Shown: positions 523 to 41,517 of the stretch, in pieces
How positions within the stretch are numbered: position 1 is the first letter of the stretch
How the letters are laid out: every line of letters starts with the position of its first letter
Assembly (NCBI GenBank): GCA_964605525.1
Contig: CAZSCV010000006.1
Location: forward strand, 434 to 64,433
Reading direction: 5' to 3'
Source of the DNA: an uncultured Bdellovibrionales bacterium
GTDB taxonomy: Bacteria; Patescibacteriota; Minisyncoccia; Moranbacterales; UBA9337
Length of the DNA: 64,000 nt
Program-made: the position numbers and the translations under genes
Notes under the pieces: model-generated
What the model saw: the letters and a program-made list of their open reading frames with translations, nothing else
The model's database searches: none
Told to the model about the DNA's origin: nothing

Positions 523-2283
523 CTACCGCACCCTCAAGACAACATATTTGGTGTCTTTGTTTCCAGCCTTGTCATAAGCCGTAAGGCGCATCGTATATAC
601 TCCGGAAGGGGCATTTGTTGGAATATTCATCGAACTGGATTTCGTTTCTTTTCCTTTTAACGGCCCGCTTATGAAAGAATATTTATAATGGTCGATTTTG
701 TTATTATCCTTAGCTTTCCACCAAAGTTTTTCCCCCTTTGATTTCGTCAGGAATGCAGGCAAATCATATACATCCGGATCCTCGGTATCAACCTTGACTT
801 CATATTTCAAAGATTCATCAATTTCATTTCCACTGGCATCATAAAATTTAAATTTAATTTCATAAGTATTACTTTTTTTGGTTTTTATGGAAATTTTCCA
901 CTCTCCATTTTTAACATCAGTATCATCATATTCATCACCGTCCACATAAGCAACCACTCTTCCGCCACTAAGACCATCGACATCTCCCTTAAACGAAAAC
1001 TTTTTATCTTTTGAATACATCTTTTTTGAAGACACGGCTTTCATTGATTCTTCGCTAGAAGATGACTTGAATTTCGGCTTATCAACATCAATATCAGTGT
1101 CATCTTGAACAACCTCAGCCTCTTCATCATCAACCACGACTTCATTAGAAACAGAAAAACTGATAGAAAAATCAGATGCATTGGCATTATCGGAACCATC
1201 TTGGCAACGGACATAATAATTATATGAGTTTCCATCAGTTAATCCACTAATGGTTTGGGAATGAGTTGTCCCCCCTGTAGTGGAAAAAATATTACTCATT
1301 GAAGTATACGCAACACTAGTAGAAGTTGAATATTTACAAGTTGCAGATTCATTAGTGGATACCCGAAGTGATGCGCTTGTGGTTCCTGCTGATAATATTC
1401 CATCAGATGACCCATTATCAGACACGACAGGAGCGGTAGTATCTGGAGTTTCGGAAACAGAAAAACTAATAGTAAAATCAGACAAATTAGCATTTCCGGA
1501 ACCATCCTGGCAACGCACATAATAATTATATGAACCCCCATCCGCTAGTCCTGTAACAGCTTGCGAATGAGTCGTTCCTCCGGTAGTGGAAAAAGTATTG
1601 GTCATCGAAGCATAAGCAACACCGGCAGAAGTTGAATATTTGCACGTTGCAGATTCATCAGTGGCAAGAGAAACTGTCGTTCCGGTAGTTCCAACCGCAA
1701 GAGATCCGGTAGGCAAACCATTTGAAAGGCTCGGAACGGTTGTATCCGGAGCTACCGGAAAAGAGATTTCCGCATCTGTTATTGTTCCAGAACTCAAAGC
1801 CACTCCTAATTCATCAGAAATCTCATTTACCCGCAAAGACAATTGAGTGGAACCGGAAGTAAATCCAGCCGTAGTTTTGGCGTAAATAGTAACCAAATGA
1901 ACATCACTTCCATTGGCATACCCAGAAGCTGTAATTCCGGCAAATCGCAGATGTCCATTTGCAATATCTGTGATATTGACAACCATCAAATAGCTAGAAG
2001 CATCCGCTCCTTTATCAACACCATCCGTTCCCTGCGTAGTATCAATTTCCACAAGATCGGGATCAAAATCGAAGTACATATTAAACGCGCTTAAATCTTT
2101 CCCTCCAGTATCCATATGAACCTCCATTTCAAAATTCGTATCACTTCCAACATCCTGGCTAACCGGAGTCAGCCAAATATCCCCTTCACTCGCCTTAACC
2201 CCCGTGGAAAATAAAATCAAACCTGCTGCTGCAAATATTGTCGCGACAGTAATCCTCCTTAAATTGTTCGTAATTCCCAACAT
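523..2283 (-). CDS. Secreted surface protein: signal peptide, cohesin-like domain, two repeated Ig-like modules, Lys/Asp-rich C-terminal region
   Basis: N-terminal signal peptide. The N-terminal domain has a cohesin-like signature (FEMEVHMDTGGKDLSAFNMYFDFDPDLVEIDT). Two near-identical modules (ATCKYSTS...YNYYVRCQDGSGNAN) follow, then a low-complexity C-terminus. Confidence 0.55.
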   Translation of the reverse strand: MLGITNNLRRITVATIFAAAGLILFSTGVKASEGDIWLTPVSQDVGSDTNFEMEVHMDTGGKDLSAFNMYFDFDPDLVEIDTTQGTDGVDKGADASSYLMVVNITDIANGHLRFAGITASGYANGSDVHLVTIYAKTTAGFTSGSTQLSLRVNEISDELGVALSSGTITDAEISFPVAPDTTVPSLSNGLPTGSLAVGTTGTTVSLATDESATCKYSTSAGVAYASMTNTFSTTGGTTHSQAVTGLADGGSYNYYVRCQDGSGNANLSDFTISFSVSETPDTTAPVVSDNGSSDGILSAGTTSASLRVSTNESATCKYSTSTSVAYTSMSNIFSTTGGTTHSQTISGLTDGNSYNYYVRCQDGSDNANASDFSISFSVSNEVVVDDEEAEVVQDDTDIDVDKPKFKSSSSEESMKAVSSKKMYSKDKKFSFKGDVDGLSGGRVVAYVDGDEYDDTDVKNGEWKISIKTKKSNTYEIKFKFYDASGNEIDESLKYEVKVDTEDPDVYDLPAFLTKSKGEKLWWKAKDNNKIDHYKYSFISGPLKGKETKSSSMNIPTNAPSGVYTMRLTAYDKAGNKDTKYVVLRVR

Positions 2284-2328
2284 ATTTTTTATTTTAAGAA
2301 ATAAGTTTTTATTTTAAATACATATTAT

Positions 2329-3567
2329 TTACAAACACCAATCAGTTCCGGACATATCCAATCCAATTGAATTTCTCAATATTAACATCGCGTCTGTTGT
2401 GTTGGTCGTATCATCACAATTCACATCCCCGGTATTAACAGAATCATACCAGCTAGTCAGACTCATATCCATTCCTACAGAACTTCTCAAAACTAATTGA
2501 GCGTCCGTAGTATTGCTCACTCCATTTTGATCAACATCGCTTCGTTCAGTAGCGACAATCGCGCTTTCAACAACAAAAGACGTAACCGGCAAAACATTGG
2601 AAACATTTCCGGCAGCATCAGTCACTGTAATTGTACAATCCGAATATGTTCCATCTGCCAAAGAACTGAATGTAGTGGTATTATTTCCCAAAACAGCTGT
2701 CGTATTAATACTACTGCACGATCCTCCAAAAGTAATAGTTCCTGCCTCTGTTGAACTGAAAACATAATTCGGGGTACTATCGCTGGTTGGAGTTGCAACC
2801 GGAGTAATTTCTTCCAAAACTGGAGCAGTTAAATCCAAAGGATTAACCGTGATGCTCGCGTCAAGGACGCTTTGCAAAATATCCGTTCCAGCACCATCAT
2901 CCGCAATCACATCACTATCGTCATAACTTCCAACTGAATTAAAACTTAGTGAGATACTCTTACTTTCAGCAGAACTTTGAAGCGCTTGGAAACTTACAGT
3001 AGCCACAACCCCGGAAGACAAATTAACTCCAGGAGTAGGTTTTGCAACTGTAATATCCAAAATTCCATTCACTGTATCATTACTGACTATCTCACAAGTG
3101 CGATCCGGGTCATCCACATCACTACAATCCAATCCATTATCAAAAACAGAATTGGTCAAATCCCATCCTGTCATCTGAAAAAAAAGCGGATCATATTCAA
3201 TTATGGCTCGCGCGACAACCGCATCACTGCCATTAGTATCAACAATGACATCCAAATCAAAAACATCCCCTTCTGTGACAGCAAGAGAGTTTTCTCCGCT
3301 CTGAGAATCCAGTAAAGAAAGAGAAACTTCGTCAGCGGCGCTGGACATATTTTGAATATCCAACGAAACAGTCAGAATAACACTAACAAAAGCTCCAGCA
3401 ATAAAAGCCAGCATAAAAACACCCTTCCATGTTTTTATTTGTGTTTTTTTGGTAAAAACATACGTTTTTCCAAGCCAGGAATATGTCTGCCCAGCCACTT
3501 CATCAATCTTTCTCTTCTTAGGAGAAGATAGAAATGGTCCATTTTCATCTTTGTTTTTTGTTTCCAT
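2329..3567 (-). CDS. Membrane-anchored protein with cohesin-like domain, Big-like domain and C-terminal type-I dockerin repeat pair
   Basis: N-terminal TM helix. The cohesin-like block is FDLDVIVDTNGSDAVVARAIIEYDPLFFQMTG and the Ig-like block is SLADGTYSDCTITVTDAAGNVS. The two C-terminal segments DVDQNGVSNTTDAQLVLR and DVNCDDTTNTTDAMLILR match the dockerin Ca-binding repeat D-x-N-x-D-G-x-V-N-x-x-D. Confidence 0.6.
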   Translation of the reverse strand: METKNKDENGPFLSSPKKRKIDEVAGQTYSWLGKTYVFTKKTQIKTWKGVFMLAFIAGAFVSVILTVSLDIQNMSSAADEVSLSLLDSQSGENSLAVTEGDVFDLDVIVDTNGSDAVVARAIIEYDPLFFQMTGWDLTNSVFDNGLDCSDVDDPDRTCEIVSNDTVNGILDITVAKPTPGVNLSSGVVATVSFQALQSSAESKSISLSFNSVGSYDDSDVIADDGAGTDILQSVLDASITVNPLDLTAPVLEEITPVATPTSDSTPNYVFSSTEAGTITFGGSCSSINTTAVLGNNTTTFSSLADGTYSDCTITVTDAAGNVSNVLPVTSFVVESAIVATERSDVDQNGVSNTTDAQLVLRSSVGMDMSLTSWYDSVNTGDVNCDDTTNTTDAMLILRNSIGLDMSGTDWCL

Positions 3568-7101: not shown

Positions 7102-7222
7102 ATTTTTATTCTAGCATATTTCAAGAAAAAACAAAAAACAATCCTCGTGGATTGCTTCATATATCGTGGTGCGTCGTGGGGGAATCCCAGTCCGCTGGTC
7201 CGCCCGTGGTGGAGAACCTTTG

Positions 7223-7295
7223 TGCGTCGTGGGGGAATCGAACCCTCGACCGTTGGCTTAAAAGGCCACTGCTCTACCGACTGAGCTAACGACGC
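7223..7295 (-). tRNA. tRNA-Lys (anticodon UUU)
   Basis: Reverse complement GCGTCGTTAGCTCAGTCGGTAGAGCAGTGGCCTTTTAAGCCAACGGTCGAGGGTTCGATTCCCCCACGACGCA folds as a cloverleaf with anticodon loop CTTTTAA and T-loop GGTTCGATTCC. No CCA is encoded. Confidence 0.7.
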
Positions 7296-7989: not shown

Positions 7990-9207
7990 TTAATTCCTTC
8001 TCTCTACTAGATTATACAAAATATTTTCAAATTGGGAAATATATTTGCCTTTGCTGTATTTTTCCAGAGATTCTCTTTGAATCTTATTTTCATCAAAAAC
8101 ACATTTGCCGCCAGCGATTTTATTCAAAATATCAATCATTTCTTTTTGGCTATTTACAATAAATCCATTTCTTCCATTCTGAATTATTTCCCCATAAGCT
8201 CCGGCATTAAAGCCCACAAAAGGTTTTCCCTGTGAAATGGATTCCAGCGCCACTAGCCCAAAAGTTTCCGGCAATTTTGATCCGGAAACAACCACCTCCG
8301 CGTTTCTGATGTATTTTTTCAGCATTATCTGGTTGAGAAATCCCAAACGGACAATTTTTTCGTTTTCCGGAAAAACAAAACCGCCCTCAATCTCCCCCGC
8401 CAAATACAATTTCATTCCAAAAACTTCCCCGAAAACGGAAATCAAATTTTCAACACCCTTATTTCGGGAAATTCTCCCGGCATAAATCGCATATTTTTCC
8501 CGCGGGCTGTTCTCCTTTTCTTCTCCCGCGCAACCTTTCTCCTTTCCTGCTATAAAATGAGGGATTATTTTTATTTTATCCGCGCTGATTCCCCGCTTAA
8601 TCAAAATATTTCTCGCAAACTCGCTCGGACAAATATACAAATCAATATTTTTTCGATATGTCCCAAAAAAATCATGCCAATACGCTTCCAGCATTGCCAC
8701 CAAACTTTGGAAATAAGAATTTTTGAAACATTTATCTAAGAAACATTGGTAATATTTTCCATTCAGGCAACGGTCATAAATTTTTCCGTTGTAATACAAA
8801 TCATAATTCGGACTTACCAATTTGTAATCATGTACCGTCATCACAATCGGAATGCCACGCTTTTTTATTTCAAACAAAATCATCGGGGAAAGCTGGTGGT
8901 AAACATTATGAATATGGACGATATCGGGATTAAAATCATCCAGCAACTTATTGATTTTTCGCTTCGCCTCCAAAGAAAAAAACATCCGGAAAATTCCTTT
9001 GATTTTTTGCGCCCAAGAATAATCTGCCGTATATCCGACCAAAGAAACAAAATATTTTTCCCATTTGCTTTTTTTGTTTTTCGGATGCTTCATCGAAAAA
9101 ACCGCCACCTCGTGACCGACACTTTCAAGCAAAAAAACAACATCCAAAAAATGCTTGTCCGCTCCCCCTTTGGGAAAATAGAATTTATTTATTTCTAAAA
9201 TTTTCAT
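7990..9207 (-). CDS. Glycosyltransferase family 4
   Basis: GT4 C-terminal signature (PETFGLVALESISQGKPFVG...). The likely true start is MKILEINKFYFPKGGAD at 9207. The upstream in-frame extension to 9345 lies in a repeat and is probably not coding. Confidence 0.75.
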   Translation of the reverse strand: MKILEINKFYFPKGGADKHFLDVVFLLESVGHEVAVFSMKHPKNKKSKWEKYFVSLVGYTADYSWAQKIKGIFRMFFSLEAKRKINKLLDDFNPDIVHIHNVYHQLSPMILFEIKKRGIPIVMTVHDYKLVSPNYDLYYNGKIYDRCLNGKYYQCFLDKCFKNSYFQSLVAMLEAYWHDFFGTYRKNIDLYICPSEFARNILIKRGISADKIKIIPHFIAGKEKGCAGEEKENSPREKYAIYAGRISRNKGVENLISVFGEVFGMKLYLAGEIEGGFVFPENEKIVRLGFLNQIMLKKYIRNAEVVVSGSKLPETFGLVALESISQGKPFVGFNAGAYGEIIQNGRNGFIVNSQKEMIDILNKIAGGKCVFDENKIQRESLEKYSKGKYISQFENILYNLVERRN

Positions 9208-9401: not shown

Positions 9402-10862
9402 TTATTTTTTGGAATAACCCACAAAAAATCTTATTAGCCCCAAAATAATCCAGAAAAATATTCCCAACAAATTGGTTTCTAAATATGGTTGAAACAAAAA
9501 AACAATCAAATAATTTACTGCTAATGCAATTAATACAAAATCAATCCACTCTTTTTCTTTTTTTTCAACCAAACTTTTCAAAGTCAAAAACACAAACGCA
9601 ATCAACGGTAAAAACAAAATCAATCCACCTTGCAAAAGAATCGCCAAAAGTGAATTATGCACGTTGCGCACTTCAACCAAATCTTGATAATCCCCCAGCT
9701 CCAGTGAAAGCTTTTTCCCCAAACCAATTCCAACCAGCGGATTTTCTCTTATTTTCTCCCCCGCCTCCAACCACAACATTCCCCGCCAAAAAAAACTTTC
9801 ATCTTCCGAAAAACTGGAAAAAGAAGCTGTTCGCTTTCCCAAAACCTCAACGGAATAATCAATTCTCTGATCAATTTTTGAATTGGGAATAATCGCGGAA
9901 AGATAAAAAACAAAAACAATAACCGTCGCCGCACCAAAAATAATTTTCCCGGCATAATTTTTCAAAAATAGCCTTTTTTCTTTTGGCAAGAAAAAAATCG
10001 CAACAAAAGCAGAAAGAGCTAGGCCAATCCAAAGATGGCGCATCATCGATCCAATGATTCCAAAAATCCAAATCGGAAGCAACCAAAAATATTTGCGATA
10101 TTTTTTTGCCAAAGAAAAAACCAAAAATATTCCCAGCGTCAAAACCGCCATTGTCAAATAGAAAGCGTGCGGAAATGCCAACAAGCGAACCCCCTCGGTG
10201 GAAAGCGGAGTAAACTCCGACCACAAACCCTGCCCGGAAATAATTCCATAAATAATAAAAAATATAATACCGATTGCGCCTGCCAAAGCGAATTTCAAAA
10301 ATCTAACCAAATGTTCTTTTTTATTTAGCAAAATAATAACAGCAAAATACAATAGCGCGTAAAACCCATAATTCTTCCAAGCGGAAAAAGCCAAATCTTT
10401 GTCAGAATTCGGATCAAAAAAACTGGCTAGGAAATATATTGAAACCAAAAATATAAAAACAATCAAGAGCCAATCGACCGCTCTTATCCCCCTCTTCCTT
10501 TGGGAGAGGGTTGGGGTGAGGGTTCGTATGGAATGCGTATTTTTTAAATAATTAACCGCTATTCCCAAAATGACAGCCAAAAAAATCACGTCCAGCGGAT
10601 AAAATTTAATTTCACTACGCGACAGTACAATCGGCGCCAAAGTGAAAAATCTTTCAAAGACAAAAGTCAAAAACACAATCGCAAAAAGTCCACTTCGCGG
10701 ATGCGCCGCGACAATCGCAAAACTTGTCAGCATCAAAACCAAATACAAAGGCAAAGAAAATCCAAACGCAAAATTGGAAAAAATAAACAAAGAAACAGCC
10801 ACGATCACAAAAATTGCACTCACCGTTTCTCTATTCATTTTTTGCAACCAGACGTAAGACAT
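9402..10862 (-). CDS. O-antigen ligase / Wzy-like polytopic membrane protein
   Basis: 486 aa with about 10-12 TM helices and a periplasmic loop, a typical WaaL/Wzy architecture. The family call comes from topology only. Confidence 0.45.
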   Translation of the reverse strand: MSYVWLQKMNRETVSAIFVIVAVSLFIFSNFAFGFSLPLYLVLMLTSFAIVAAHPRSGLFAIVFLTFVFERFFTLAPIVLSRSEIKFYPLDVIFLAVILGIAVNYLKNTHSIRTLTPTLSQRKRGIRAVDWLLIVFIFLVSIYFLASFFDPNSDKDLAFSAWKNYGFYALLYFAVIILLNKKEHLVRFLKFALAGAIGIIFFIIYGIISGQGLWSEFTPLSTEGVRLLAFPHAFYLTMAVLTLGIFLVFSLAKKYRKYFWLLPIWIFGIIGSMMRHLWIGLALSAFVAIFFLPKEKRLFLKNYAGKIIFGAATVIVFVFYLSAIIPNSKIDQRIDYSVEVLGKRTASFSSFSEDESFFWRGMLWLEAGEKIRENPLVGIGLGKKLSLELGDYQDLVEVRNVHNSLLAILLQGGLILFLPLIAFVFLTLKSLVEKKEKEWIDFVLIALAVNYLIVFLFQPYLETNLLGIFFWIILGLIRFFVGYSKK

Positions 10863-10982
10863 AGGAATTAGGAATTAGAAATTTAATACACTGTTATTCT
10901 ACCAATAATTCAATAATAAAACCATCAAATACTCTCAAAATAACTCAATATAATAGTATATCACAAATCAGAAAAAAAATCA

Positions 10983-11012
10983 AGCCCTGATGTGAAATTT
11001 CACACCAGGGCT
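10983..11012 (-). terminator. Intrinsic terminator hairpin
   Basis: Near-perfect 15-bp palindrome agccctgatgtgaaa/tttcacaccagggct, followed on the minus strand by a T-run (A8 on plus at 10971..10978). Confidence 0.5.
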
Positions 11013-11040
11013 CGCCATCGGCAGCTGCCGAAGAAACATG

Positions 11041-11418
11041 TTATTTTTTGCGGACAATAATACATCCGCGAGAATCCGAGCATTCCGGTCTCAAACCCTC
11101 AAACTTGGAATACGGGTCGACAAGAAAATACCATGTCCCCTCCTTATCCTTCCAGGTATAGAGGAATCCCTCATCCGGATTTGCCGGGTCCAGCTTGAAT
11201 GAGTGGACAGGACCGAGGTCTGTGTTCCTCGTTCCCTTCCCGTCGCGGTGATACACCACGACATTCAAGAGCTCAGTCCCTGCCGGCATGGGCGGAATTG
11301 TCACCTCATCCCCCACGCAACTCGGCACGGCATTCACCCACTTGGGAGCCGCCTGCGCGATCCCTATCAGACAAAAAAACACTGCCACTGCCACGAAAAA
11401 ACCGATTGTCTTTTTCAT
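11041..11418 (-). CDS. Small secreted protein (GC-rich island)
   Basis: Likely start MKKTIGFFVAVAVFFCLIGIAQA (signal peptide). Local GC is about 50%, against about 35% in flanking DNA. Confidence 0.45.
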   Translation of the reverse strand: MKKTIGFFVAVAVFFCLIGIAQAAPKWVNAVPSCVGDEVTIPPMPAGTELLNVVVYHRDGKGTRNTDLGPVHSFKLDPANPDEGFLYTWKDKEGTWYFLVDPYSKFEGLRPECSDSRGCIIVRKK

Positions 11419-11594
11419 GATGCTTCCTCCTGTTGTTTGCCGACATATTATAGTCGGTTTTTTTGTTGAAAAAATTCTTTTCCCACAACCCAATGTTGCG
11501 GAAAAGTTCGTTCTTTCAAAATAAAAATAGAGATAAGTGGATCCTTCAATGAAGGACCCACCCATAAATAATTCTGCTCAATAATCAAACAGAA

Positions 11595-13154
11595 TCAATA
11601 TTGCAATAACTGATGATCGGCCGGTTTGACTTCTTCCGTCCTGATCACAGAATATTTTTTACGAACCTCGTGTTTCAATTCGAAACGAACGAAGGCTCCG
11701 TACGAATATCCACCAGCAGCACCTGCAACTGCCGATGCCAACGTATAATCAAAACTTGGACCAAACATCAACCACTCGCGATATCTGGCCTCCGCATTCA
11801 GATTCAGTCCCCAGCGATCTTCGTGAGGAGCAAATCCAATCTGCGCGCCAAGTCTCCCCGCCCAGTCCTCGGAAAAATACTTGTGAATTTTCGCTCCGAT
11901 AACAAATCCAGCGCGATCACTCACTTCATCTCCACTCCAACTGGAATTGATGGACCCGCTTACGTCAAACCATCCCTCCGCGTACAACACCGCCATAAGT
12001 TCAGGCGCAAATTGACGGAGATATTCGGCGTAATACCCCAAGAGAAAATGATCTTCGTCTTTGTGATAACCTGACGAAGAATTTTCCCCGTGCAAATGTT
12101 CCCAAAGCGTGCGGAACATAAACTGCACTTGATGGGGATATCCATTATCAGCAAGCCCGGTCCAAATAAAACCGATTTCTGGACCAATTCCCGCACTGTT
12201 CCACTCATAGCCGGCATCTGTTTCACCAAAGTCGCCCTTAGCAAAAACACCGACCTTCGGCACTAATGTGCCCCCAAAGATGTTGATGTTTCCATTCTCA
12301 CATCTTTGAAGAGTCAGGAGATACTGCGCGTACCACCAAAGGCCATGCACATCCCTCTCCTTATTCTGCCACGCGCCCATACCAGCATCTACTTCATGCT
12401 CGCACTGGACGCACTCCTTTTCTTCCACGACTTCTCTGAAAATCGGCGGGAGTTCCGGCGGAGTTTCCGGAATCACTTCCGGCACCACTGGAGCAGGCGG
12501 AATTTCCACTTTTTTAACCGGAACGGGAGGCTTCTCCCAAATGAGCCAGTTGGCGCACTCAGGTTTTGCATAAACGGATCCCACATAGCTTCCGTTTACT
12601 ATAATACCAAATCTTCCCACTTTCGCCTTTTCCGGCGAAAGCTCGGCTCGGTACCATTTCACCTTATTTTTTCCCGACACCATCTTAATGACGGCGCCGG
12701 AAGGCAAAATATCCATTCCCTCGCTGGCAAAATTCAGCCGGGCATCTTTTGGAATATCAAATCCCAAAAGTTTCAAACCTTCGACGAAAGTTCCCCTCCA
12801 AGGATCATCCCCGACCTCATCGTCGGAGTAAACTGCAGGATTTTCCTTAGTGCCAGTTACCACCTTTTTCGTGATAACAGAAAAAGTCTTTTTCGCCCTT
12901 TTGGTTATTTTGGGCGTAATCAACTTTTGTTGATTAGAAATTTTTTCAGGAATGATCACATTCTGTCCGACACGAATCGTGTACGGGGCAGAAATCTTAT
13001 TTTCCTCAGCGATGTTATGCCAGTCAACTCCCAGTTTAACGCCGATAGTTGAAAGACACTCACCCTTTGCGACCGTATGTGTCTGATCTGCCCAAGCGCT
13101 TGTTGCACACAAGGCAATCAGAAGCATTACCCATAAACCAACAATCCGCTTCAT
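11595..13154 (-). CDS. Secreted LysM-domain protein with Pro-rich linker and large C-terminal domain (GC-rich island)
   Basis: Signal peptide, then a LysM motif (HTVAKGECLSTIGVKLGVDWHNIAEENKI...IRVGQNVIIP), a PVPVKKVEIPPAPVVPEVIPETPPELPP linker, and a Trp/Gly/aromatic-rich C-terminal domain. Confidence 0.6.
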   Translation of the reverse strand: MKRIVGLWVMLLIALCATSAWADQTHTVAKGECLSTIGVKLGVDWHNIAEENKISAPYTIRVGQNVIIPEKISNQQKLITPKITKRAKKTFSVITKKVVTGTKENPAVYSDDEVGDDPWRGTFVEGLKLLGFDIPKDARLNFASEGMDILPSGAVIKMVSGKNKVKWYRAELSPEKAKVGRFGIIVNGSYVGSVYAKPECANWLIWEKPPVPVKKVEIPPAPVVPEVIPETPPELPPIFREVVEEKECVQCEHEVDAGMGAWQNKERDVHGLWWYAQYLLTLQRCENGNINIFGGTLVPKVGVFAKGDFGETDAGYEWNSAGIGPEIGFIWTGLADNGYPHQVQFMFRTLWEHLHGENSSSGYHKDEDHFLLGYYAEYLRQFAPELMAVLYAEGWFDVSGSINSSWSGDEVSDRAGFVIGAKIHKYFSEDWAGRLGAQIGFAPHEDRWGLNLNAEARYREWLMFGPSFDYTLASAVAGAAGGYSYGAFVRFELKHEVRKKYSVIRTEEVKPADHQLLQY

Positions 13155-13156
13155 AA

Positions 13157-14098
13157 CTACCTCCTTGGCGCGCTCAGCGCCTCTGTGAGTTGTTTCGCAT
13201 TGAATTGATTTCTTTTATAAACTTCATTTTGAGCAAGGATCAAAAGATATTCCATAGTGAACGCCATATTGCGACGATTCGGAATCTCAGAATTATAATC
13301 CCAACCGGTACTCGGGGCATTACCTGCTCCAATCAAATCCATCGCCACATTAATGGAATTGCAAATCGCAAATCCGGTCGGATCCGGGATAGGATTGATA
13401 CGGAACGTCCCCGTCCCAATAAGCTTCTGAAAATAGCTGTATTGCGGATTAATTCCGCGGATTTTCGCTACTTCATTCACTCCACAGGGAGACAAAAGAT
13501 ATCCTTCTGGATATTGAATTTGATTCCAAGTCTTAATGACATATTGAAACTTCTCAATCCGGGAAAGCGAACTCAGATTAAAAATGTTGCCATTTTCATC
13601 CGTGTTCACTTCTCTTATTTTTTCTTTCCGATACGCGGGATCAGCAAGAAACTTTCCCCGCTCTACGGGCAATTCTCTTCCGTATGGGCTGTAAATATAA
13701 TCCACAGCTGAAGAAAGAATCGCCGTCTGTCCGGAAGAAATTTGACCATCGATAACTTCCGTTCCGAAATACTGTCCCGAAGGATGCATTCCGGAAAAAA
13801 TCACTTGACCAAATCTCTCAGAATTATCATCCAAAATTGTCCACGTATTCCAACGCAGACGCCCTGGATAATATTCCCCAAACAGCTTAAGTGGAAAAAC
13901 TACCATAAAAGTAGAAATATCCCCTTTACTAATTGCCAGAGTCGGCTCCAACCCCAAAGACTGATGAGGCTGAACCAAAAGATTAACTTGATTTTCAGGC
14001 AAAGAAGCATTCTCCACCCGAAGCTCTTTTCCAGCGCACCCCGAAAGAAGCGCTACGACAAAAAATATAACAGTAAGACTTCTCAGAAAATTTTTCAT
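13157..14098 (-). CDS. Lipoprotein, hypothetical (GC-rich island)
   Basis: Likely start MKNFLRSLTVIFFVVALLSGCAG (lipobox). High-GC composition. Confidence 0.5.
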   Translation of the reverse strand: MKNFLRSLTVIFFVVALLSGCAGKELRVENASLPENQVNLLVQPHQSLGLEPTLAISKGDISTFMVVFPLKLFGEYYPGRLRWNTWTILDDNSERFGQVIFSGMHPSGQYFGTEVIDGQISSGQTAILSSAVDYIYSPYGRELPVERGKFLADPAYRKEKIREVNTDENGNIFNLSSLSRIEKFQYVIKTWNQIQYPEGYLLSPCGVNEVAKIRGINPQYSYFQKLIGTGTFRINPIPDPTGFAICNSINVAMDLIGAGNAPSTGWDYNSEIPNRRNMAFTMEYLLILAQNEVYKRNQFNAKQLTEALSAPRR

Positions 14099-14162
14099 CA
14101 CGCACCTCCCGATGCAGTTTTTTGATTTGGAATAATATTGGGAATTAACTTCCCATATATAT

Positions 14163-14202
14163 CTCATCATTACCATATTACGAAATATGGTAATGTTTAT
14201 AT
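14163..14202. promoter_or_regulatory. Palindromic operator-like site ATTACCATAT-TACGAA-ATATGGTAAT
   Basis: Perfect 10-bp inverted repeat about 70 nt upstream of the island lipoprotein gene. It shares the half-site ATTACCATAT with the repeats flanking the TrpR-like gene at 55.45 kb and 56.03 kb. Confidence 0.4.
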
Positions 14203-14411
14203 TGATTACCTATTAAATTGTCAAGGCAACTTATTTTATTACACATTTTCTCACGACCGTGAGTTAATGTGTGAAAAAAATATATCCAACGCTTGGGACT
14301 TCCAAGCGGAAGAGTGAGTTTTGGAAGAATACGTTTTGAAAAAACATACCGATCTCCAAACAACTCACCACTTCCACCAAGAATTATATTTATTGTTTCA
14401 TGTTTTATATC

Positions 14412-14457
14412 TGTCTTACGTCCTACATTTTACGTCTTATGTCTTACGTCTTACGTC
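14412..14457. repeat. Heptamer tandem repeat (GTCTTAC-like) x about 6
   Basis: ctgtcttacgtcctacattttacgtcttatgtcttacgtcttacgtct. Related to the (GTCTTAA)n array at 19788..19858. Confidence 0.6.
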
Positions 14458-14461
14458 TATC

Positions 14462-15157
14462 CTAAAGTTCATTCAAACTTTCCAAATATTCCTTTTCTTC
14501 CCGTGGCAATCCCATTGTTGCAAAATAATACGCCCACATCGCGCTTAAAATCACGCCAACCAAAAATCCTCCAACCACGACAGCAACTATTTCTTTGACG
14601 CTCGGATTCTTTTCCCAAATCGGTCCCGTCAAAATTTGCACATGCAAATCCGCCTTGTCTTGCAAAACACTTCCCCCATTTTCCATTACTTTTGCAATCG
14701 CGTTGGAAATTTGCACTGCCTCTTTTTGGCTATTGGCAAAAACTTCAAAACTCACGATTCCATATTGAAACTTTCCGCCTACTTTTACCATTTGCCCCCA
14801 CTCTTGCAATCTTTCCTTTCGATCAAAAGGAAGAAATTCAGAGTTCACCTCTCCGGTTTTGACAACTTGATCAATGAAAAGCTCGCTATACACAACTTCC
14901 CCCAAAACTCGGTTCACATATTCAGCTGATTTGAACACGGAATAAAAATCTTTTGAGTCCTCCCCGCCGGTCGGCACTACCAAATAATCAGTAGAAGCCT
15001 TGAAACTTTTTTGACTTACTACCAAAAAAAGAAACGACAAGGCCGCCACCAAAAATCCAAAAAGCAACAGCGTTCCGATTTTTTGCCTATTTTTAGCCTT
15101 TATTTCCCAATTAGACATATCATTATTCCATTTATTATTAATATGAGATTGTAGCAA
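14462..15157 (-). CDS. Wzz-like polysaccharide chain-length determinant / co-polymerase family protein
   Basis: One TM near the N-terminus (GTLLLFGFLVAALSFLFLVV), about 150 aa of periplasmic domain, and a C-terminal TM (IVAVVVGGFLVGVILSAMWAYYF). The start may be the internal Met at 15118. Confidence 0.45.
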   Translation of the reverse strand: MLQSHINNKWNNDMSNWEIKAKNRQKIGTLLLFGFLVAALSFLFLVVSQKSFKASTDYLVVPTGGEDSKDFYSVFKSAEYVNRVLGEVVYSELFIDQVVKTGEVNSEFLPFDRKERLQEWGQMVKVGGKFQYGIVSFEVFANSQKEAVQISNAIAKVMENGGSVLQDKADLHVQILTGPIWEKNPSVKEIVAVVVGGFLVGVILSAMWAYYFATMGLPREEKEYLESLNEL

Positions 15158-21026: not shown

Positions 21027-21103
21027 ATAACAAATACTACACTAAACAGAGATTTATGCAAAGAGAAAATATCCAACGAAATAAATTGGTTTTTTATTTA
21101 ATG

Positions 21104-21174
21104 TTGGGGATGAGGGATTCGAACCCCCGATGCAAGGACCAGAACCTTGTGCCTTACCGCTTGGCTAATCCCCA
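21104..21174 (-). tRNA. tRNA-Gln (anticodon CUG)
   Basis: Reverse complement TGGGGATTAGCCAAGCGGTAAGGCACAAGGTTCTGGTCCTTGCATCGGGGGTTCGAATCCCTCATCCCCAA. It has the U1-A72 pair typical of bacterial tRNA-Gln, anticodon stem CAAGG/CCTTG and loop TTCTGGT. Confidence 0.75.
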
Positions 21175-26569: not shown

Positions 26570-26642
26570 GCCACCTTAGCTCAGTTGGCAGAGCAATGCA
26601 CTCGTAACGCATAGGTCCGGAGTTCGATTCTCCGAGGTGGCT
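26570..26642 (+). tRNA. tRNA-Thr (anticodon CGU)
   Basis: GCCACCTTAGCTCAGTTGGCAGAGCAATGCACTCGTAACGCATAGGTCCGGAGTTCGATTCTCCGAGGTGGCT, with anticodon loop CTCGTAA and T-loop GTTCGATTC. Confidence 0.8.
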
Positions 26643-26668
26643 CATATTCAAAAACTTTACAAAAAATA

Positions 26669-41103: not shown

Positions 41104-41517
41104 TACCAAGGCAAATCTATAAGCCGGATTCTGTACTCCGACGCGAGGTCGGAGTGGCAATCATTTATCTAGCTCCGGCGTTACCGTCGGAGTCAAGCGG
41201 CACCCCCCGGCAAAATGCCGAGGTACGGCCTTGCATTCAAGTAAGGATTTAGCCGTTTCACCTCTTATATTACTATAAGAGCTTATCCCCCGTGAGGGGG
41301 ATATTTTATTTCTTTCGAAATAAAACGTCTCTGCTCGCACCTCTTGGGTTTCCCCATGACGGGCGTTACCTCCGACGATTTTTCAATGTCGGAGCTCCGC
41401 ACCCTTTAGAGCGTCGGAGCCGCTACCCTGCTCCCTGGTACAAAACCAGGGGAATGTCCGGACTTTCCTCTCCGCCGATGCAAAGCATCAGCAGAGCAAT
41501 TGCCCAATTTGCCTTGA
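41104..41517 (-). ncRNA. rnpB: RNase P RNA (bacterial type A)
   Basis: The minus strand carries GAGGAAAGUCCGG (P4 5' strand, plus 41458..41470), ACAGAAUCCGGCUUA (P4 3' strand, plus 41120..41134), AGGGUGCGGAGC, and a P1 pairing CAAGGCAAAU/AUUUGCCUUG. The region is about 410 nt and GC-rich. Confidence 0.8.

Follow-up and report, generated by a model that had tools for sequence, protein, structure and literature searches.

A GC-rich three-gene cassette in a surface-glycan locus of Moranbacteria-related bacteria, with a predicted LysM-tethered β-barrel protein

Gene content and regulatory signals of the cassette

The 64,000-nucleotide window analyzed here (contig CAZSCV010000006.1 of assembly GCA_964605525.1, deposited as an uncultured Bdellovibrionales bacterium and placed by GTDB in the Moranbacterales) carries at 10980-14200 an island of raised GC (guanine plus cytosine) content. 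Three genes, here termed C, B, and A, occupy this island and form one transcription unit in that order, closed by a strong terminator; these genes, their signals, and the neighboring genes discussed below all lie on the minus strand. Signal peptides and the lipobox were read directly off the translations and, in agreement with a preliminary description of this DNA, all three products appear to be exported: (i) gene C (13157..14098) encodes a 313-aa lipoprotein with the lipobox LLSGC; (ii) gene B (11595..13154) encodes a 519-aa exported protein with a signal peptide ending ...TSAWA/DQ; and (iii) gene A (11041..11418) encodes a small secreted protein of 125 aa with a signal peptide ending ...GIAQA/AP. 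Protein B joins a LysM domain to a predicted β-barrel resembling those of outer-membrane proteins (OMPs), and the cassette is interpreted below as a recombining envelope operon.

The transcription unit is preceded by a promoter-like site at 14224..14196 (TTGACA, 17 nt, TATAAA), which was read from the sequence, the consensus scan having missed it because its -10 box ends in A. This site belongs to the conserved left-hand flank of the cassette, and its -35 box is preserved in three related loci (L001, L011, and L020). Directly downstream of the -10-like box lies a perfect palindrome with 12-bp arms and a 4-nt loop (14168-14195; folding free energy, dG, of -13.8 kcal/mol and z-score, z, of -2.2), followed by the GGGAGGTG ribosome-binding site of C. 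An operator-like palindrome had been described at 14169..14198, and these arms bear it out; the element is a candidate operator or 5′ hairpin. The palindrome is identical in L001 and L020, while in L011 it carries two compensatory pair changes and one G-U pair, a covariation comparison confined to four sequences; when sought upstream of C in the distant loci, it was absent. The Shine-Dalgarno sequence of B, AAGGAGGT, lies within the final codons of C, whose stop is 2 nt ahead of the start of B (in L001 and L005 there is instead a 4-nt overlap of the genes), and by this arrangement B is read as translationally coupled to C. The 176-nt spacer between B and A harbors two strong hairpins with U-rich tails (11479..11565; dG -34.1 kcal/mol, z -4.5), which are candidate internal terminators or attenuators and may allow A to be expressed independently of C and B. 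Judging from its strong ribosome-binding sites, the cassette is probably well expressed.

The 3′ end of the cassette is formed by an intrinsic terminator at 11014..10981, with a 15-bp stem followed by T8 (dG -26.9 kcal/mol, z -7.4), which matches the palindromic terminator previously placed at 10983..11012 and is kept in L001, L011, and L020. A consensus scan placed an extended -10 promoter-like site for the downstream Wzy_C gene at 10955..10983 (TTGATT, 17 nt, TATACT, with TG ahead of the second hexamer), and the -35 region of this site falls on the T-tract of the terminator. This putative promoter is base-for-base invariant in four genomes that are otherwise 75-80% identical, and makes up a conserved flank on the right-hand side of the cassette. 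At the outer edge of each flank, the intergenic DNA at 14400-14460 and 10860-10885 contains short tandem motifs (TGTCTTACGTC-like; AGGAATT repeats), with L011 carrying a TCTTACG-type motif where the window carries the AATTCCT type.

Domain architecture of protein B and its probable partners

Twenty-one homologues were found for protein B, and its structure was modeled with AlphaFold2 from an 18-sequence alignment (mean pLDDT, the predicted local distance difference test score, of 79). The parts of the protein follow in the order LysM, middle domain, Pro-rich linker, and β-barrel. The LysM domain, which had been recognized in the preliminary description along with the linker, comprises residues 26-69 (12948..13079; Pfam PF01476, E 2e-8; residues 24-68 in the model) and matched LysM-containing solved structures by sequence search. 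It is separated in the model by a disordered stretch from the middle domain (residues ~100-207, 12534..12857), which is mostly β and has no assigned fold. The Pro-rich linker, evident from the sequence at residues ~208-238 (12441..12533), was likewise modeled as disordered, with pLDDT <50 at residues 212-232.

The remainder of the protein, residues 239-508 (11631..12440), was modeled as a barrel of twelve long antiparallel strands at a pLDDT of mostly 90-96, in which residues 239-264 form a strand and the C-terminus of B is reached 11 residues past the last barrel strand. The C-terminal 270 residues of B are thereby confidently predicted to be a 12-stranded OMP-like β-barrel. When the modeled barrel was compared with the PDB by Foldseek, all of the top 50 matches were integral outer-membrane barrels, the best being Hbp (3aeh, E 4e-9), followed by EspP, AIDA-I, NalP, and BrkA, which are 12-stranded autotransporter barrels; OpcA, FadL, AlgE, and NanC were also matched, and the probability was 1.00 for the autotransporter barrels, OpcA, and NanC. 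By sequence, the barrel region had no Pfam match even at E<=10 and no match among PDB solved structures, and a Pfam scan of barrels only at the same threshold returned stray hits only (Ago_hook and DUF2490, each in 1 of 14 members, the latter at E 0.03). A barrel-only profile detected 115 clusters among 1.84 billion representative proteins. The named sources of this family are all Moranbacteria or Parcubacteria, most members being unnamed metagenomic proteins, and the sole other Pfam domain found in the family proteins was LysM (51 of 97 members). The version encoded at L010 is a barrel-only lipoprotein.

The strands were further examined for the pattern expected of a lipid-embedded barrel. 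An alternation of hydrophobic and polar residues was clear in 7 of the 12 (b3 and b7-b12). The predicted barrel could instead be a soluble or lattice-forming β-structure, such as an S-layer-like wall protein, that never enters lipid. This alternative draws on strands of up to 26 residues, short loops on both sides, and the weak amphipathicity of the first six strands, and it has a precedent in the β-barrel trimers of Thermotoga, which make up an extended sheath of protein that carries small patches of lipid (PMC10160955). Yet the top structural matches are all integral membrane barrels, and strands b7-b12 show the pattern, classic for such barrels, of one side suited to lipid and the other to a polar lumen, so that we regard a purely soluble or lattice role as rather unlikely. 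An OMP-like barrel is the preferred prediction for this region; the membrane insertion, surface exposure, location, and function of B are inferred.

The other two proteins are less readily placed. Protein C has 63 homologues, none annotated, and its model (pLDDT 78) has a β-sandwich and, after it, long helices. Neither Pfam nor NCBIfam assigned C to a family, lipobox-type noise and a sub-threshold DUF7197 hit being the only returns, and no sequence relative was found among solved structures. Protein A had no Pfam, NCBIfam, or PHROG hit, while its syntenic homologues are 34-83% identical. Protein C, translationally coupled to B, is probably its partner, and A is probably a partner as well, as a small secreted third component; the three would together form a C-B-A complex.

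Conservation, composition, and recombination at the locus

The cassette is set among genes of a surface-glycan locus. Its upstream neighbor (14462..15118) encodes a CpsC/Wzd-like polysaccharide chain-length protein with two transmembrane segments (TIGR01006, E 1e-8, over residues 6-194 and below the curated cut-off), which in a pairwise comparison did not resemble the other Wzz gene of the window. Downstream lies the Wzy_C gene (9402..10862; Pfam PF04932, E 2e-11), encoding an O-antigen ligase/polymerase-like protein, and beyond it a GT4 gene (7990..9207; GT4 Pfam families), in a window that is altogether rich in glycan-assembly genes. The surrounding genes were examined in related loci L001, L003, L005-L011, L013, L014, and L018-L023, and the order in the relatives was CpsC-like, C, B, A (at times with one additional small gene), Wzy_C, and GT4. 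This synteny reaches the most distant members of the barrel family recovered (profile E-values 1e-16 and 1e-4). At L016 the genes for B, A, the CpsC-like protein, Wzy_C, and GT4 are present, with no tblastn hit to C. All named homologues of A, B, and C were from Parcubacteria or Moranbacteria, and the 100% identical proteins P0022 and P0085 trace the window to the metagenome-assembled genome 'Parcubacteria group bacterium Athens0714_25'.

Several features of the wider setting were also recorded. Upstream of the locus in L005, L009, and L010 stands a conserved series of genes (DivIC, a SurA_N/PrsA-like rotamase, HtrA, ClpB, DUF5656, and a second HtrA), so that genes for the folding and quality control of exported proteins adjoin the cassette in these three; the upstream arrangement in the window differs. 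The L011 contig (CAZRJL010000009.1) carries the same locus of the Candidate Phyla Radiation (CPR) type at 72-99% nucleotide identity to the window, including an identical tRNA-Lys stretch, and L017 (CAZWWQ010000078.1) is a 3-kb fragment only, with a barrel match that is 59% identical. The label 'uncultured Bdellovibrionales bacterium' on L011 and L017, which are contigs of metagenome-assembled genomes from binchicken co-assemblies, is probably wrong. Contamination or mis-binning was considered as the source of the island and rejected, as the arrangement recurs in independent assemblies from many samples. The RNase P RNA (class A, 41104-41515) is an ordinary feature of the window that does not adjoin the island, nor does any of the tRNAs (Lys-TTT, 7222-7295; Gln-CTG, 21103-21174; Thr-CGT, 26570-26643), the nearest of which is 3.7 kb from the island, past the Wzy and GT4 genes.

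Windowed analysis of GC content upheld the existence of a discrete compositional island. The GC content of 10980-14200 was 45.6%, compared with 37.7% for the window as a whole and 37.3% on average for the other non-overlapping 3.2-kb stretches (sd 1.5, maximum 40.6), which makes the island the highest in the window at about +5.5 sd. The preliminary figure of about 50% GC is approached by genes A and B, whose stretch (11041-13154) is 47.5% GC and peaks at 58.5% in 200-nt segments, and is too high for gene C (42.4%); likewise, the abrupt rise claimed for the borders holds at the 3′ end of the cassette, where GC steps from 28.5% to 50% over 10800-11200, while the change on the C side is more gradual. 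The GC content of third codon positions (GC3) was 0.61 in gene A, the maximum of the cassette and about 5 sd above the window genes, 0.475 in gene B (about 2 sd above), and not raised in gene C (0.39). The dinucleotide signature of the island is just +1.5 sd from the window mean, which indicates that the island is not strongly foreign. The most deviant dinucleotide signature of the window, exceeding that of the GC island, belongs instead to two large genes for Ig-like (Big_13) repeat proteins at 523-3567 (delta* 0.13 versus a mean of 0.05).

The origin of this GC excess was then examined by codon-level decomposition. The cassette GC observed in codons was.467, compared with.433 expected from its own amino acids at background codon usage and.382 for the background; hence, ~60% of the excess stems from amino-acid composition and ~40% from synonymous codon choice. 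In the cassette proteins Gly, Pro, Trp, and Val are up, and Lys, Ile, Leu, and Phe are down. At the synonymous level the cassette GC3 was.466 versus.383 expected from background codon usage, and this shift toward G/C-ending codons could reflect either expression-linked codon bias or GC-biased gene conversion. The composition is shared by the relatives: the GC content of cassette genes is 42-52% next to flanking genes of ~28-45%, and those of L009 are 51-61% GC versus ~40-48% in its flanks, the other exported-protein genes of L009 being 50-56%. Thus, GC is raised in all hosts whatever the host GC, and the excess is a property of the gene family, intrinsic to it, and not the signature of a donor. 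As a separate observation, a 376-aa gene with no Pfam hits at 15250-16380 of L001 is 47% GC among neighbors of ~38%, and is a second GC-rich gene near that locus.

These results bear on the explanation first offered for the island, namely recent acquisition from a higher-GC host or partner organism. The height of the GC excess and the sharp borders would fit such an event, and the cassette is truly exchanged horizontally (see below). However, the island is not absent from close relatives, the C-B-A unit standing at the same site in the relatives examined, and the cassette is syntenic over deep divergence. The preliminary description had itself taken synteny of the high-GC genes across related genomes as speaking against recent acquisition, and such synteny was found. 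A higher-GC donor is also disfavored by the GC being raised regardless of host GC and by the confinement of the named sources of the 115 barrel clusters to Parcubacteria or Moranbacteria. Furthermore, no mobility or integrase genes were found, a phage-family scan gave no hit beyond LysM, and no meaningful direct repeats flank the island. The dinucleotide signature, as noted, is just +1.5 sd from the mean. A recently imported foreign island is held to be extremely improbable; what survives of the horizontal acquisition proposal is exchange within the clade. A role of the LysM domain at a cell-cell interface, also suggested in the preliminary description, is conceivable.

Evidence of this exchange came from L020, a 788-kb contig that was found, with two shorter copies, by a scan with the flanking Wzy_C protein. 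The flanks of L020 are closely related to those of the window (91% protein identity for CpsC and 90% for Wzy), whereas its C′ and B′ proteins are only 28% and 35% identical to C and B, and its A′ had no hit to window A by sequence comparison. The site is thus not empty but holds a divergent allele, which is also raised in GC (.42-.49 versus.34-.41 in the flanking genes of L020). Homology detected by blastn breaks at ~14034, inside the signal peptide of C, and resumes at ~11014, in the terminator stem, break points that are essentially the island borders named in the preliminary description.

Shorter tracts were detected against a baseline of three housekeeping genes (RRF, M50, and Sortilin-like), which are 75-80% (~77%) identical in nucleotide sequence to L001, L011, and L020 alike. 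L001 is 95% identical to the window in nucleotide sequence over the barrel and over gene A as a whole (93-98% in the 3′ part of A), and its B-A spacer is 97% identical. L011 reaches 99% in gene A and 90-96% in the B middle domain, but only ~80% in the barrel. For L020, the values are 89-93% in CpsC, the promoter region, and Wzy, and one patch within the B middle domain is 70% identical. The intergenic region upstream of C is 93% identical to both L001 and L020. In alignment A1, one middle domain was found joined to different barrels and one barrel type to different middle domains. This reshuffling, together with the high-identity tracts, identifies the locus as a recombination mosaic. Horizontal exchange here appears, by these alignments, to consist of allele swapping and short gene-conversion tracts among related CPR lineages, with the conserved regulatory ends likely serving as homology arms.

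A recombination hot spot could also be held mainly responsible for the GC excess, as a by-product of GC-biased gene conversion and not of protein function or expression. Recombining bacterial genes tend toward higher GC3 (PMC4450053), and the locus shows several independent high-identity tracts and a whole-allele swap, with GC3 standing 8 points above the background-codon expectation across most amino acids. This account leaves the ~60% of the excess due to amino-acid composition and the unraised GC3 of gene C unexplained. In addition, the CpsC and Wzy flanks share recombination tracts with L020 yet are near background in GC, which shows that recombination alone is insufficient for the cassette GC. 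Gene conversion as the main cause is therefore possible but judged unlikely.

A possible envelope module and its relation to known systems

Taken together, we favor the explanation, at a probability of roughly 0.6 for the whole, that the cassette is specific to Moranbacteria-related CPR bacteria, where it has long formed part of a Wzy-type surface-glycan locus, and that it is a self-contained, recombining envelope operon in which B is a peptidoglycan-tethered, OMP-like barrel with C and A as partners. Protein B would be exported by Sec and held to peptidoglycan through its LysM domain, and the Pro-rich linker would allow the barrel to extend to an outer layer, where, with its hydrophobic outer face, it may act as a pore or anchor. 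Lipid-anchored C and secreted A would join B in an exposed, wall-tethered module, as suggested by its hypervariability, by a promoter and terminator of its own, and by its position among Wzy, CpsC, and GT4 genes. This module would probably serve or decorate the glycan made by the neighboring genes, a link that is itself conditional. Exposure would drive diversification through whole-allele swaps and conversions of a few hundred nucleotides between related lineages, with the promoter/signal-peptide end and the terminator end used as homology arms, and the diversifying pressure could come from phages or host specificity.

Several points weigh against this explanation. As to the barrel, strands b1, b2, and b4-b6 are weakly amphipathic and unusually long (14-26 residues), the prediction derives from an alignment of 18 sequences, and the TM-scores (template modeling scores, target-normalised) to known barrels are moderate at 0.45-0.53. 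As to the partners, the model of C had no fold match in the PDB or BFVD. As to the recombination, chimeric metagenome assembly of co-occurring strains could in principle exaggerate the mosaic identity, and the recombining CpsC and Wzy flanks are not GC-enriched to a degree comparable with the cassette. Finally, CPR bacteria are described as monoderm, their outer membrane having been lost (10.1101/2021.05.31.446380; PMC10160955; PMC12857230), which leaves the barrel with no known membrane or β-barrel assembly machinery (BAM).

This last point can also be turned around. A tentative and bolder proposal, which we consider possible though doubtful, is that Moranbacteria-related CPR bacteria are not simple monoderms but have a lipid-containing or toga-like outer layer that houses peptidoglycan-tethered, OMP-type barrels assembled by a non-BAM route, with the module as its main exposed component, which would help to determine phage or host specificity; in a variant, the barrel would sit in the outer membrane of a host. 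In its own right, that variant has an epibiont insert the barrel into a Gram-negative host's outer membrane as an attachment or nutrient pore, with LysM gripping peptidoglycan. CPR bacteria are widely epibiotic as well as being described as monoderm (PMC12857230), B is by its model an exported, single-chain barrel with a hydrophobic face, and hypervariability fits the evolution of host range. However, the cassette lies within a locus for the surface glycan of the cell itself, B is coupled to a lipoprotein, and there is no evidence of a delivery system; host delivery is therefore held to be improbable, and a module of the cell's own envelope is preferred.

The family may nonetheless matter for how CPR cells are viewed. 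A literature search on β-barrel, porin, and outer-membrane proteins in Patescibacteria, Moranbacteria, and CPR found no description of this barrel family among the papers covered. CPR envelope architecture is known from very few organisms, and in evolutionary scenarios the whole radiation lost the outer membrane; a clade-wide, position-conserved family that joins a peptidoglycan anchor to an OMP-type barrel could change this picture. It also offers a cloneable handle on whether some CPR bacteria kept or re-invented an outer layer and on how a barrel may be assembled without BAM. Allele swapping suggests that the module is exposed at the cell surface and subject to diversifying pressure, which would make it a candidate phage receptor or host-attachment determinant in uncultured organisms. 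For genome scans the locus is a caution that a sharp GC island may be an old resident whose composition is set by protein type and local recombination.

Among known systems, the closest architecture is that of the inverse autotransporters (type Ve, e.g., intimin, invasin, and YeeJ, including 'beta-only' forms), which combine a signal peptide, a peptidoglycan-binding LysM, and a 12-stranded barrel (PMC4943183, PMC5595812). Protein B likewise has a signal peptide, a confirmed N-terminal LysM, and a predicted 12-stranded barrel. It differs in that (i) no C-terminal passenger of Big or lectin domains is present; (ii) a middle domain and Pro-rich linker are inserted between LysM and the barrel; (iii) its barrel has no IAT_beta or other Pfam match, and intimin and invasin were not in the top 50 of Foldseek; and (iv) its organism has no known outer membrane. 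The closest structures are instead those of the classical autotransporters (Hbp, EspP, AIDA-I, NalP, and BrkA; E 4e-9 to 1e-5, with ~260-290 columns aligned), in which, as in B, the barrel is C-terminal and follows a linker. Sequence identity to these is 10-13%, TM-scores are in the moderate range given above, and no Pfam autotransporter match was obtained. In addition, the classical autotransporters have a pore-filling helix before the barrel where a β-strand was modeled in B, and a large secreted passenger where the N-terminus of B has the wall-binding LysM and a β domain of ~110 aa.

In joining a wall-binding module to an outer-layer barrel, B also resembles proteins that tether the outer membrane to peptidoglycan, such as OmpM/SlpA with SLH, OmpA, and the Ompα/β-barrel toga of Thermotoga (10.1101/2021.05.31.446380; PMC10160955). 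In those proteins the module is SLH or OmpA-like whereas in B it is LysM, the barrel of B is smaller, and B lacks a coiled coil. Such tethers have reportedly been lost from CPR bacteria along with the outer membrane (10.1101/2021.05.31.446380; PMC10160955). When B was examined for kinship with OmpM/SlpA, no SLH was found, LysM being the only Pfam domain detected.

At the level of the locus, the analogy is with allele replacement, and the shared features are highly divergent alleles between conserved flanks, mosaic tracts, and a Wzy-type setting. Such features are seen in O-antigen and capsule serotype switching, where variable surface-antigen cassettes in polysaccharide loci are exchanged by recombination in conserved flanks. 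By this analogy the cassette would behave like a serotype-switching cassette; however, serotype switching swaps a set of glycosyltransferases, whereas here a protein module composed of a lipoprotein, a predicted barrel, and a small protein is swapped.

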